Assembly (NCBI RefSeq): GCF_965641715.1
Contig: NZ_OZ282453.1
Strand: one strand, 5' to 3'
Length of the DNA: 64,000 nucleotides
From: Escherichia coli
Lineage (GTDB): Bacteria > Pseudomonadota > Gammaproteobacteria > Enterobacterales > Enterobacteriaceae
Program-made: the position numbers
In this document: positions 26,901-29,900 of the stretch, piece after piece
How positions within the stretch are numbered: position 1 is the stretch's first letter
Layout: the number at the start of each line of letters is the position of its first letter

Positions 26901-29900
26901 AAGAACTGGAAATTGTCTGGAACAATATTAAAGCCGAAGCCAGAACGCTGGCGGACTGTGAGCCAATGCTGGCCAGTTTTTACCACGCGACGCTACTCAA
27001 GCACGAAAACCTTGGCAGTGCACTGAGCTACATGCTGGCGAACAAGCTGTCATCGCCAATTATGCCTGCTATTGCTATCCGTGAAGTGGTTGAAGAAGCC
27101 TACGCCGCTGACCCGGAAATGATCGCCTCTGCGGCCTGTGATATTCAGGCGGTGCGTACCCGCGACCCGGCAGTCGATAAATACTCAACCCCGTTGTTAT
27201 ACCTGAAGGGTTTTCATGCCTTGCAGGCCTATCGCATCGGTCACTGGTTGTGGAATCAGGGGCGTCGCGCACTGGCAATCTTTCTGCAAAACCAGGTTTC
27301 TGTGACGTTCCAGGTTGATATTCACCCGGCAGCAAAAATTGGTCGCGGTATCATGCTTGACCACGCCACGGGTATCGTTGTGGGTGAAACGGCGGTGATT
27401 GAAAACGACGTGTCGATTCTGCAATCCGTCACCCTTGGCGGTACTGGGAAAACTAGCGGCGACCGTCACCCGAAAATTCGTGAAGGCGTGATGATTGGCG
27501 CGGGCGCGAAGATTCTCGGCAATATTGAAGTTGGGCGCGGCGCGAAGATTGGCGCAGGTTCCGTGGTGCTGCAACCGGTGCCGCCGCATACCACCGCCGC
27601 CGGCGTTCCGGCACGCATTGTCGGTAAACCAGACAGCGATAAGCCATCAATGGATATGGACCAGCATTTCAACGGTATTAACCATACATTTGAGTATGGG
27701 GATGGGATCTGATGTCCTGTGATCGTGCCGGATGCGATGTAATCATCTATCCGGCATGGCGTCACTAATCTCTCAACAACGCTCCCGGATATCCCAGCTG
27801 CCGCCAGGCTTCATACACCACTACCGACACCGCATTGGACAGGTTCATGCTGCGGCTGTCTGGCACCATCGGAATCCGAATTTTTTGTTCAGCGGGCAGG
27901 GCATCAAGAATGCTCGCTGGCAGGCCGCGTGTTTCCGGGCCGAACATCAGATAATCGCCATCCTGATAGCTTACGGCGCTGTGAGCAGGCGTACCTTTCG
28001 TGGTGAGGGCAAACAGGCGCTGGGGATTTTCTGCTTCGAGGAACGCGCTGTAGTCATGATGACGCGTAACGGCGGTAAACTCGTGATAGTCCAGCCCCGC
28101 GCGGCGCAGGCGCTTATCGTCCCAGGCAAATCCCATCGGTTCGATGATATGCAGACGAAAGCCGGTATTAGCGCAAAGACGGATGATGTTGCCAGTATTT
28201 GGCGGAATTTCTGGTTCGTAAAGTACGATGTTTAGCATACTGCCCCCTTAGTGCGGGGGCAGGATAGCAGAAAATTGGTGAACCGTGCGGCCTTTTCCCC
28301 TCACCCCGGAGGGGCGAGGGAGAAAAAAAGAGTGCGGTGTCGTTTCAGAGTGAGGGAGTACATACAGCGCCGAACGGTCCCCTCTCCCTGAGGGAGAGGG
28401 TTAGGGTGAGGGGGCGCAAACGACTATGCCGCATTCCCTTTCGCCATGGGAGCCAGTGCCGCAGGCAACTCTTTACCCAGCCCCTGCACCAGCGAATCTT
28501 GCGTAATTTCGCTGATCGATTTCGCGCCAGTCAGCGTCATCGCCACTTTCATCTCTTTTTCGATCAGATTTAGCAGGTTAGCTACACCCGCCTGGCCAGC
28601 TGTTGCCAGCGCATACAAGAAAGCACGACCCAGCAGTACGGTGTCGGCACCGAGCGCAATCATACGCACGACATCAAGCCCGTTACGAATTCCGCTATCC
28701 GCCAGAATGGCTATATCACCTTTCACCGCATCTGCAATAGCGGGCAACGCACGAGCGGAAGAGAGTACACCGTCCAGCTGGCGGCCACCGTGGTTAGAAA
28801 CTACAATCCCATCAGCACCAAAACGTACTGCATCGCGCGCATCTTCCGGATCGAGGATCCCTTTGATCACCATCGGGCCATCCCAGAAATCGCGGATCCA
28901 CTCAAGGTCTTTCCATGAGATGGACGGATCGAAGTTATTCCCCAGCCAGCCGATGTAATCTTCCAGTCCGGTCGGTTTGCCGAGGTAAGCCGAAATATTT
29001 CCTAAATCATGTGGACGACCGTTCAGGCCCACATCCCACGCCCATTGCGGATGTGTCACCGCTTGCAAGTAGCGGCGCATTGCCGCATTTGGGCCGCTCA
29101 TACCTGAATGCGCATCACGGTAGCGTGCGCCCGGTGTCGGCATATCCACGGTGAAAACCAGCGTCGAACAACCCGCTGCTTTTGCTCGCTCCAGCGCGTT
29201 ACGCATAAAGCCGCGATCGCGCAGTACATAAAGCTGGAACCACATTGGGCGCTTGATGGCTGGCACGACTTCTTCAATCGGGCAAACGGAAACCGTCGAG
29301 AGAGTAAACGGAATGCCATGCGCATCCGCCGCTTTGGCTGCCTGAACTTCGCCGCGTCGCGCATACATGCCACACAAACCTACCGGACCTAGCGCCACCG
29401 GCATCGACAATTTCTCATTAAACAGCGTCGTTTCCAGGCTTAAGTCGGACATGTTTTTCAGAATACGCTGGCGCAGCGCCACTTCTGACAAATCTTCCAC
29501 GTTGCGGCGCAGCGTGTATTCAGAATATGCACCACCATCCATATAGTGGAACAGGAACGGCGGCAGAATGCGTTGCGCTGCGGCGCGATAATCGCCGGCT
29601 GCGGAAATAATCATGCGTTTTTCTCCCTCGAATGCTCATTATGCTCACCGGGCAGGCGGGTAATCCGTGCGTGGCGAGCCTGATCTTCATCGAATCGTTT
29701 CATGGTGGTGTGAACAAAACTAAGGTGCGCCATCATTGCTTTACGCGCCCCGTCGGCATCACCAGCAAAAATGGCGTCAATGACAGCCTGATGTTGTTCG
29801 GTCAGTTGTGAAAAAACCGGTGGCACCAGATACATCCGCTGACGGCTATGCTTCACTGAGGATTGCAGGACATCGAAGAAACCGCGCATGGTTTGCAGCA

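Follow-up and report, generated by a model that had tools for sequence, protein, structure and literature searches.

Earlier work on the BoxC or PIT repeats of Escherichia coli is reportedly that of Bergler (1992) and Hoyne et al. (2000, 2002), and the list given by Hoyne et al. in 2000 is said to hold 25 PIT elements. The family is already known, and to our knowledge no function has been demonstrated for it in 30 years. BoxC, the PIT element and the intrastrand-triplex motif TMECO are synonyms for one repeat of E. coli (PMC4666352). Its consensus has three blocks, CCCTCNCCC-N3-6-GGGNGAGGG-N3-GGGNGAGGG, in the order of one pyrimidine block, a loop, a purine block, a 3-nt loop and a second purine block, and the second loop reads TTA in type A and CCG in type B (PMC4666352). 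The K-12 catalogue consists of 23 TMECO copies, among which type-A and type-B units form five inverted pairs (PMC4666352). In vitro, and with consensus oligonucleotides only, a single strand forms a hairpin, against which its third block can pack as a purine-motif triple helix; in vivo, the published work detected no triplex (PMC4666352). Assays of PIT/TMECO elements found neither promoter nor terminator activity, the copies have no link to gene class, and a BLAST survey tied them to no transposon, phage or plasmid (PMC4666352). Variability is raised around TMECO loci, and one type of decay that has been described is the partial loss of one member of a paired copy, leaving a hairpin (PMC4666352).

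REP/BIME repeats resemble BoxC in that both are short, GC-rich, hairpin-forming intergenic repeats, often transcribed inside operons. REP hairpins between cistrons guard the upstream mRNA from 3' exonucleases, as between malE and malF, and such protection of upstream mRNA is, by analogy, the action that we would propose for one of the two BoxC sites described here. As for the enzymes that mobilise these repeats, we know of the RAYT family for REP and of none for BoxC. ERIC elements are about 127 bp long and have a core of their own; like BoxC, the ERIC/IRU repeats are imperfect palindromes scattered over transcribed intergenic regions, and their presence varies by strain or species. RSA repeats, at ~152 bp, do not fit the size of the units found here (34-57 nt).

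Both sites lie in a 64-kb stretch of E. coli DNA (the window), in which a first-pass annotation had noticed a BoxC-like motif between lldD and trmL (site 1) and again between mtlA and mtlD (site 2). Judged by their sequence, the GC-rich motifs at these two intergenic sites are copies of BoxC, as the annotation had supposed: the unit matches the published BoxC/PIT/TMECO consensus, and the lldD–trmL copies are TMECO no. 17 and 18 of the catalogue (PMC4666352). The 23 published K-12 copies were made into an nhmmer profile, which at a cut-off of E<0.01 found three separate copies in the window, all of them at these two sites: 28379-28413 (plus strand, E=6.9e-10, full length), 41317-41286 (minus strand, E=0.0027, profile positions 3-35) and 28320-28298 (minus strand, E=0.0067, profile positions 1-23 only). 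One extra match at E=0.01, 28399-28380 on the minus strand, was the palindromic stem of the 28380-28413 copy seen from the opposite strand. The double purine-block pattern GGGNGAGGGNNNGGGNGAGGG occurred, with at most one mismatch, exactly twice in the window, once per site (0 expected from 100 shuffles), and in a tiled two-strand scan site 2 was the top non-self match of the site-1 unit. The annotation would have been refuted by two copies that failed to align beyond short G/C runs. They aligned with 30 of 34 identities and one gap, at a score of 46 against 12.8 +/- 2.2 (maximum 22) in 2000 composition-preserving shuffles, and the presence of the motif at both sites was thus borne out beyond chance by profile, pattern and alignment alike.

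One might still hold that GC-rich runs of purines and pyrimidines came to resemble each other by chance, because composition is biased at both sites and because BLAST of the 68-nt site-2 element (E<=1e-3, 28-Gb database) linked it to no other BoxC copy, a result that with a short query and a large database is not evidence against homology. We give this reading next to no credence. Three blocks of 8-9 nt are common to both sites in order and spacing; the score and identity of their alignment lie far from the shuffle maximum of 22; and at site 2 the profile gave E=0.003, while the pattern was found 2 times against 0.00 expected. At two positions site 2 deviates from the strict consensus, to which its orthologues in Klebsiella, Enterobacter and Cedecea conform perfectly (E 9e-9 to 9e-14). 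Chance resemblance of the two sites was refuted by the alignment, profile, pattern and orthologue tests together. The supposition of a dispersed intergenic family was confirmed as well, since BLAST located the 60-nt site-1 unit at 43,772 places, spread over 5,385 of the 5,426 E. coli genomes, with a median of 9 and a range of 1-20 per genome.

Comparison with the other catalogued families also agreed with the first-pass annotation, which had kept the motif apart from REP. The REP 30-mer matched the window at 41323-41352 and 52550-52579 and never at the flagged motifs, and the REP unit at 41323-41352 differs from site 2 in having no consensus in common with it. The ERIC core (the ERIC2 primer sequence, with <=3 mismatches) was absent from the window; as a positive control, the same pattern did pick up such a core in Salmonella, where it lies in the mtlA-mtlD spacer on the upstream side of the conserved BoxC-like copy. 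Searched with Rfam at the gathering score, the entire window yielded only JUMPstart (4426-4464), with the motif unmatched. In E-value mode nothing at site 2 reached the threshold, and the sub-threshold matches were to the REP-derived naRNA4, centred on the REP part.

Site 1 has the same three blocks, type-A TTA loop, intergenic position and multi-copy character as the published family, and is itself a listed locus. Its intact unit is a type-A copy on the plus strand (28380-28413; K-12 TMECO no. 17), built of CCCTCTCCC (28380-28388), TGA, GGGAGAGGG (28392-28400), the second loop TTA, GGGTGAGGG (28404-28412) and a final G. It matches the strict consensus exactly over 28380-28412 and is identical to no. 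17 of Table 1 (PMC4666352) and to the K-12 sequence. A GCGCCGAACGGTC-like flank precedes it (28366-28379, plus strand), resembling the GTGCTCGATCGGTC, GTGCTCAGACAGTC and GGACTCGGTCAGTC that stand directly 5' of the pyrimidine block in K-12 type-A copies. On the minus strand, 28297-28320 (CCCTCGCCCC tcc GGGGTGAGGGG) is a truncated unit, the remnant of K-12 TMECO no. 18. That copy conforms to the consensus in K-12, where its second loop is CCG (type B); it does not in the window, where one purine block and a loop (12 nt) are gone, so that it differs from the published form in having two blocks only and remains as a plain hairpin. Alignment with K-12 places the 12-nt deletion as a single gap between CCGGGG direct repeats, and we assume that replication slippage between these repeats may have caused the loss in this strain.

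In K-12 the two copies lie at 3,781,061-3,781,028 (no. 17) and 3,781,121-3,781,156 (no. 18), both between lldD and trmL (PMC4666352). By their coordinates and sequences they are one of the five published A+B pairs and the sole head-to-head pair, the other four being tail-to-tail. The units are separated by a 59-nt spacer (28321-28379) with an A/T run and a degenerate block GAGTGAGGGAG, the same in K-12. A six-allele alignment showed that the entire insert relative to the empty allele is ~139 nt (28285-28423) and abuts the lldD stop codon (28424-28426, minus strand); CCCCTCACCC (28297-28306) and GGGTGAGGGG (28404-28413) are the arms of a perfect 10-nt inverted repeat that bounds it. The interval of 28245-28430 drawn by the first-pass annotation does enclose the repeat, but it also takes in the spacer and a hairpin that is not BoxC. 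The latter (CTGCCCCC...GGGGGCAG, 28240-28262, minus strand) is present in empty E. coli alleles and in other genera and is unmatched by the BoxC profile; it stops one base short of the trmL start codon and overlaps the trmL Shine-Dalgarno sequence.

Site 1 thus has two head-to-head units, already catalogued, that were inserted recently and in one lineage only, and it is unstable. The insert is absent in ~30% of the sampled E. coli genomes and in Salmonella, and the occupied state is therefore the derived one. With the site-1 spacer as query, coverage of >=80% was reached in only 2,714 of 5,420 genomes, and an evenly spaced sample of 60 records contained at least 5 classes of alleles. The lldD–trmL spacer measures 185 nt in the window and 197 nt in K-12, and 154, 72 or 47 nt in other strains, the empty 47-nt form being that of EcN and ATCC 25922. 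Relatives reached through TrmL homologues (Salmonella enterica and one other) have spacers of 47-64 nt without BoxC. The end points of the allele deletions fall within the blocks. The site behaves as unstable, structure-prone DNA. No target-site duplication was seen in the six-allele alignment, where the flanks are heavily substituted. A scan of the lldD–trmL intergenic region found no promoter-like or terminator-like consensus, and because the published assays also lacked promoter and terminator activity, site 1 is probably without effect on lldD or trmL.

At site 2, the annotated interval of 41262-41330 was too long at one end: the element itself is 41263-41319 (minus strand; nhmmer E=0.0027; 30/34 identity to the site-1 unit), and a REP unit, of another repeat family, starts at 41323 (41323-41352, minus strand, 1 mismatch to the REP 30-mer, with a partner REP at ~41389-41406). 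On the mtl sense strand the element has five blocks: Y1 CCCCTCTCC, tcac, R2 GGAGAGGG, ttt, R3 GGGTGAGGG, aaaag, Y4 CCTCACCCC, ag, and Y5 CCCTCTC. Y1-R2-R3 make up a near-canonical TMECO unit, and R2R3 with Y4Y5 form a 17-bp hairpin. The element differs from the published family in its TTT loop, its two extra pyrimidine blocks and its two mismatches to the consensus. E. coli and Klebsiella have TTT as the second loop, whereas Salmonella has TTA and both Enterobacter and Cedecea have CTA; the loop at this site is thus not canonical. The element ends 29 nt upstream of the mtlD start codon (41233-41231), and the interval between them is an A/U-rich leader with a Shine-Dalgarno sequence (41234-41262, minus strand), conserved with the element across genera. 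Site 2 is missing from the 23-copy K-12 list, and neither mtlA nor mtlD is named in the portion of the supplement available to us (PMC4666352).

RNA folding, a check put forward by the first-pass annotation, gave -25.4 kcal/mol (z=-3.56) for the hairpin of the truncated unit at 28297-28320 and -38.6 kcal/mol (z=-3.45) for site 2 in a 71-nt context. In a 109-nt context the minimum-energy fold of site 2 consists of two hairpins (-41.9 kcal/mol) and is close in energy to the long hairpin. In this folding model, site 2 may be able to switch between the Y1:R2 plus R3:Y4 fold and the long R2R3:Y4Y5 hairpin.

By its blocks and its distribution, site 2 is an old, diverged BoxC copy that was extended by two pyrimidine blocks to a near-palindrome. 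In contrast to the published loci, it is stable and conserved across genera. BLAST placed it once per genome in 5,404 of the 5,426 E. coli genomes, at >=99% identity in 4,494 of them, whereas the 68-nt REP segment beside it in that spacer reached >=99% identity in only 22 records. Between the window and K-12, the mtlA-mtlD spacer has 0 differences in the element and leader and 8 positions elsewhere. Copies in the same position were found in Salmonella, Citrobacter, Klebsiella, Enterobacter, Cronobacter, Cedecea and Siccibacter, through MtlD proteins bearing those genus names, so that with E. coli at least 8 genera have the element before mtlD; at the Buttiauxella locus, the contig ends inside the element.

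In the covariation set of 8 sequences, the R2R3:Y4Y5 hairpin was 91% paired and four pairs had changed on both sides, most of these double changes coming from one genus (Cronobacter); 0 of 500 shuffles reached this level and slid controls gave 38-60%. The sense strand holds 9 G-U against 6 A-C pairs, a weak lean towards that strand. From the same position in at least 8 genera and the pair-preserving changes, we infer that site 2 is under selection, with a stem-loop of the mtlADR mRNA as the probable target. As a counterpoint, template switching that corrects palindromes, or gene conversion from other BoxC copies, could make both sides of a pair change together in the absence of selection on RNA.

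If the stem-loop is the selected feature, site 2 would form a strong stem-loop within the polycistronic mtlADR mRNA and could shield the mtlA segment against 3' exonucleases; alternatively, it might label or insulate mtlD at its processed 5' end and ribosome-binding region. By either action, the relative output of mtlA and mtlD would be set. Taken jointly, it is very probable that both sites are BoxC, site 1 being an unstable derived insertion and site 2 a conserved copy that would act as an mRNA stem-loop. Much more tentatively, the mtlD-side copy could be an exapted BoxC, kept since before the enterobacterial genera diverged, whose RNA or DNA structure would control the mtl operon, for example the MtlA:MtlD ratio via mRNA processing or stability, with the fold switch as part of it; we see this as possible but somewhat doubtful. 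If it is true, site 2 would become the first member of the BoxC family with a function backed by evidence, and an entry to the question of why the three-block sequence turns up again in bacterial phyla that are far apart. What is modestly new here is solely the conservation of site 2. One window offers a natural contrast between a recent, decaying site 1 and a site 2 long held in place, and the latter, conserved with pair-preserving changes in a well-studied operon, is a practical test ground for action through RNA or DNA structure. The truncated copy and the recent, polymorphic state of site 1, as well as the age and cross-genus conservation of site 2, had been overlooked in the first reading of the window.

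The elements may instead act as DNA, with triplexes or hairpins stalling replication and the resulting local variability being kept by selection, as in the adaptive instability of Holder et al. (2015). The published in vitro triplex and the raised variability at TMECO loci (PMC4666352) agree with this, as do the at least 5 alleles of site 1 with deletion end points within blocks. Under the rules G.G:C, A.A:T and T.A:T, and read from the sequence only, copy 17 allows 9/9 triplets and site 2 allows 8/9, while the truncated copy allows none. We nevertheless consider it unlikely. The triplex was undetected in vivo (PMC4666352), and site 2, with 8 possible triplets, is among the most stable parts of its spacer, which indicates that the capacity to form a triplex is not enough to make a site unstable. 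We see no evident adaptive gain from an unstable lldD–trmL spacer, and any structure-prone repeat would be expected to be unstable without instability being its purpose. Less credible again, and in our opinion very improbable, is that the hairpins are terminators or attenuators, ending lldPRD at site 1 and, at site 2, stopping part of the transcription that runs from mtlA into mtlD. Both sites do lie downstream of a gene and have strong RNA hairpins on the transcribed strand. However, no U-tract follows any of the stems, a search for intrinsic terminators (stem-loop plus U-tract) was empty in both spacers, as were the promoter and terminator scans of the mtlA-mtlD spacer, and the T-run of site 1 comes before the hairpin on the sense strand. 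PIT elements had no terminator activity in published assays (PMC4666352), and the empty site-1 alleles manage without a hairpin.

How the copies spread is a separate matter, and here the elements could be MITE-like, moved in trans by a transposase, with the blocks as terminal inverted repeats or as a single-stranded recognition structure comparable to that of REP and RAYT. This reading concerns dispersal and is compatible with the main explanation; we hold it to be conceivable, though less likely than its opposite. We know of no associated transposase, the alignment at site 1 lacks a target-site duplication, and only 40 of the 43,772 places of the 60-nt unit are plasmid-borne. The published BLAST survey likewise gave no link to transposons, phages or plasmids (PMC4666352). 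On the other hand, site 1 is derived and has a 10-nt perfect inverted repeat at its bounds, E. coli genomes carry anywhere between 1 and 20 copies, and the K-12 pairs have flanks and a ~27-nt spacer in common, like a composite unit. Among the matches listed for the strict consensus in genome and viral contigs were distant taxa, unrelated bacteria that carry the motif in high copy number, more than 80 loci in Mitsuaria, and numerous viral or proviral contigs. The Cedecea locus is also in keeping with mobility, for there an additional BoxC copy has been inserted beside the conserved mtl copy.

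The BoxC repeat, later called the PIT element, is the motif named TMECO by Holder et al. (2015; PMC4666352), with the consensus CCCTCNCCC-N3-6-GGGNGAGGG-N3-GGGNGAGGG, and 23 copies of it were listed for K-12 in that study. An nhmmer profile was built from these 23 published sequences, and both strands of the window were scanned with it. In the spacer of 185 nt that separates the trmL start from the lldD stop (28239-28423; site 1), a full-length match was found at 28379-28413 on the plus strand (E=6.9e-10), and a match to the first two blocks only at 28320-28298 on the minus strand (E=0.0067). 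The spacer of 229 nt that lies between the start of mtlD and the stop of mtlA (41234-41462; site 2) contained a nearly full-length match at 41317-41286 on the minus strand (E=0.0027). A match at E=0.01 was the stem of the first site 1 copy on the opposite strand, and there was no other BoxC match on either strand of the window, all the rest having E>0.1. The pattern of two purine blocks, allowing at most one mismatch, occurred exactly twice in the 64 kb, once per site, with none expected from 100 shuffles. The units of the two sites were identical at 30 of 34 positions in an alignment with a single gap (score 46, compared to 12.8 +/- 2.2 in 2000 shuffles), a likeness that extends beyond short G/C runs.

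The profile, the pattern and the pairwise alignment thus agree with the first-pass annotation, which had described a boxC-like motif at two intergenic sites, and by every sequence criterion applied both elements are members of the BoxC/PIT/TMECO family. Its further suggestion of a dispersed repeat family is borne out by the 60-nt unit of site 1, which was found with its flanks at 43,772 places, only 40 of them on plasmids; of 5,426 complete genomes of E. coli, 5,385 carried it, with a median of 9 places per genome (range 1-20). The proposed distinction from REP also holds: a REP unit begins four bases beyond the element at site 2, and the flagged elements themselves are not REP. ERIC was ruled out for both by a search of the window for the ERIC core, and intrinsic terminators by consensus terminator scans of both spacers, which gave no match. 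Neither element matches any Rfam family; with the gathering score as cut-off, Rfam yielded a single hit in the window, a JUMPstart element at 4426-4464 on the plus strand (55.2 bits). The repeat family itself is already known.

The window belongs to an E. coli chromosome and is oriented opposite to K-12 MG1655, in which the same stretch carries mtlA, mtlD, mtlR, yibT, yibL, lldP, lldR, lldD and trmL. The 1.2 kb around site 1, with cysE, trmL and lldD, was 100% identical to several complete genomes. In Table 1 and Supplementary Table S2 of Holder et al. (PMC4666352), the TMECO copies no. 17 and no. 18 are placed between lldD and trmL, and therefore site 1 is a catalogued BoxC locus. Its spacer differed from that of K-12 by two substitutions and one 12-nt gap. 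The intact unit at 28380-28413, of type A with a TTA loop and no mismatch, is identical to no. 17. Copy no. 18 reads CCCTCGCCCCTCCGGGGAGAGGGCCGGGGTGAGGGG in K-12, and its counterpart in the window (minus strand, 28320-28297) reads CCCTCGCCCCTCCGGGGTGAGGGG. The lost 12 nt comprised one purine block and a loop and lay between two CCGGGG repeats, as is typical when sequence is deleted between short direct repeats. The remnant folds as a plain hairpin (-25.4 kcal/mol, z=-3.56) and can no longer form a triple helix. Partial copy loss at paired sites, with a stem-loop still possible, was described by Holder et al. (PMC4666352).

The interval initially assigned to the repeat, 28245-28430, does contain BoxC, but it also covers a hairpin that is not BoxC. 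This hairpin, CTGCCCCC...GGGGGCAG (28240-28262, minus strand), ends one base before the trmL start codon, encloses or overlaps the trmL Shine-Dalgarno sequence, and is also present where BoxC is missing from this spacer, namely in the empty alleles of E. coli, in Salmonella and in one further relative. It may control trmL translation.

The lldD-trmL spacer is highly polymorphic. At least 80% of the 281-nt spacer query was covered in only 2,714 of 5,420 genomes, and an evenly spaced sample of 60 records from this query comprised 17 window-like alleles, 13 K-12-like alleles with the extra 12 nt, nine of 154 nt, three of 72 nt and 18 short ones. Nissle-type EcN and ATCC 25922 had a spacer of 47 nt with no BoxC at all, and a single block was left in strain 103. 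When the loci of relatives were reached via TrmL homologues, BoxC was found neither in the 63-64 nt spacer of Salmonella enterica nor in the 47-nt spacer of a relative with 90% TrmL identity. Compared with the empty allele, the insert spans 28285-28423. It immediately follows the lldD stop codon, and a 10-nt perfect inverted repeat, formed by the outer purine blocks, bounds it. In the allele alignment no target duplication was visible, and the flank of the insert carried unusually many substitutions. Site 1 is a recent, unstable insertion, gained within Escherichia and then reduced by repeated partial losses, with deletion end points inside the blocks. The deletions are directly observed among the alleles, and slippage would be their mechanism. 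This allele series is an example of behaviour already published for the family.

The spacer of strain wlxctx60 (locus L007) has lost the central part of the BoxC pair to a 35-nt perfect palindrome, CTGTCTCTTGATCAGGAGATCTGATCAAGAGACAG (430-464), which has CTCCC on either side; the class made up about 9 of the 60 sampled genomes. The palindrome was present in 1,838 of 5,426 E. coli genomes, at up to 31 places per genome and in many of them at or within features annotated as IS4-family transposase. Its sequence is similar to a pair of inverted IS50 inside ends.

The element at site 2 reads, on the mtl sense strand (the minus strand of the window), CCCCTCTCC tcac GGAGAGGG ttt GGGTGAGGG aaaag CCTCACCCC ag CCCTCTC, in the block order Y1, R2, R3, Y4, Y5 (Y, pyrimidine; R, purine), followed by GGG and an A/U-rich leader, and it ends 29 nt before the mtlD ATG. 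The first three blocks make up a TMECO unit that departs from the strict consensus at two positions, and 8 of 9 triplets are still possible by the triplet rules. The last two blocks pair with both purine blocks in a 17-bp hairpin (-38.6 kcal/mol, z=-3.45), and in a longer context the minimum is a two-hairpin fold (Y1:R2 and R3:Y4; -41.9 kcal/mol); therefore two folds compete at this site. No U-tract is present at the element, nor did the consensus scan find a terminator-like match in the mtlA-mtlD spacer. On the sense strand, a 13-bp hairpin, CCCACCGTCTCCA tg TGGAGAGGGTGGG (41429-41456), begins 7 nt past the mtlA stop codon; it includes a block resembling BoxC, but the BoxC profile does not match it (E=5.3), and it was absent from the other genera examined. 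The mtlD frame (40085-41542, minus strand) has no stop on its upstream side across the BoxC-like element and the REP units, and because of this some database entries (P0121, P0122) give MtlD as 443-465 aa and not 382 aa, which looks like start-codon mis-annotation.

The 68-nt site 2 element was present once per genome in 5,404 of 5,426 genomes, 4,494 of which had it at 99% identity or more, whereas the adjoining 68-nt REP-bearing segment of the same spacer reached 99% identity in only 22 records and had a best match of only 80-90% in 2,428. Between the window and K-12, the element and leader showed no differences and the rest of the spacer eight. Spacers of other genera were reached via MtlD homologues, the organism being the name on the MtlD protein. 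The five-block element occurred at the same distance from mtlD in all seven loci compared (Citrobacter braakii, Salmonella enterica, Klebsiella pneumoniae, Enterobacter hormaechei, Cronobacter sakazakii, Cedecea neteri and Siccibacter colletis), while the remaining spacer was unrelated. The first three blocks were perfect consensus in Enterobacter and Cedecea and nearly so in Klebsiella (E 9e-9 to 9e-14), and the apical loop between R3 and Y4 varied from 5 to 16 nt. Judged from these comparisons, the mtlD copy at site 2 is ancient and has been conserved. Its conservation across genera was not found in the portions of the literature searched and is the single result that goes beyond them, a modest new addition to a known kind of element.

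In the alignment of eight genera, the long hairpin was 91.4% paired, compared to 38-60% in slid controls, and four pairs were changed on both sides, a number reached by none of 500 shuffles; GGGAAAGGG pairs with CCCTTTCCC in Cronobacter, and GGGTGAGGG with CCTCACCC in the other genera. This covariation is suggestive rather than conclusive, because there were eight sequences and most double changes came from one genus. Matched changes of this kind could also arise through template switching that corrects the palindrome, or through conversion from other copies. The excess of G-U over A-C pairs on the sense strand (9 vs 6) favours RNA of the mtl sense strand only weakly.

Other repeats also occur in this spacer. 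Salmonella (L140, its mtlA-mtlD spacer, about 530-575) has an ERIC/IRU core, called from the ERIC2 primer sequence with 1 mismatch, at the position of the REP units in E. coli, and Cedecea (L144, 541-576) has an extra inverted BoxC unit there (E=9.6e-12); thus each genus collected a different repeat family upstream of the mtlD element. The sequence of two draft assemblies (L138, L146) is interrupted upstream of mtlD, at distances of 197 nt and 66 nt and within or beside the repeat cluster, consistent with these repeats interrupting short-read assembly.

In published work, single-stranded BoxC forms a stable triplex in vitro and none was detected in vivo; BoxC blocks DNA polymerase in vitro, has no promoter or terminator activity, and is surrounded by raised sequence variability. 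Site 1 fits this picture and gives it a direction, gain first and partial loss afterwards, and the consensus scan of its spacer, which found no promoter-like or terminator-like match, agrees with the published negative assays. We therefore read site 1 as structure-prone DNA that does nothing for lldD or trmL and is either neutral under selection or slightly costly. Such a reading does not fit site 2, whose conservation implies selection. Within its polycistronic transcript, this element sits just upstream of the A/U-rich leader, and the most economical mechanism would be an intercistronic RNA stem-loop. REP hairpins serve as 3' barriers in other operons, and the stem-loop may act likewise for the mtlA segment; it may also be a 5' cap-like structure and insulator of the mtlD ribosome-binding region.

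The G/C-rich motif was already reported to be widespread, with more than 260 genomes containing it. Our scans of genome contigs (L011-L130) and viral contigs (L147-L266) give occurrences and not a distribution. Among the matches listed, the strict consensus was found at more than 80 loci in Mitsuaria chitosanitabida, and also in a Methylomirabilota genome and Candidatus Contendobacter, with constant blocks and lineage-specific loops and flanks. Among IMG/VR viral or proviral contigs, at least 120 stretches carried it as well (123 distinct cores among the 146 matches listed), several with 3-4 copies, which sits uneasily with a published survey stating that the motif is not associated with phages.

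Site 1 is the sole head-to-head A+B pair in K-12 (type B having the loop CCG), whereas the other four, at hrpB-mrcB, fepB-entC, ygfF-gcvP and alx-sstT (L002-L006), are tail-to-tail. These four have the same layout as site 2, which differs in its very short spacer and in a last purine block cut to GGG. The likeness among the four K-12 pairs goes beyond the triplex cores: the type-B unit is preceded by a TTTTC(T/C) run, the type-A unit is followed by a GGGGAC-N-GAGCAC-like sequence, and three of the four have a similar spacer of about 27 nt. The repeated unit may therefore be a composite of about 125 nt.
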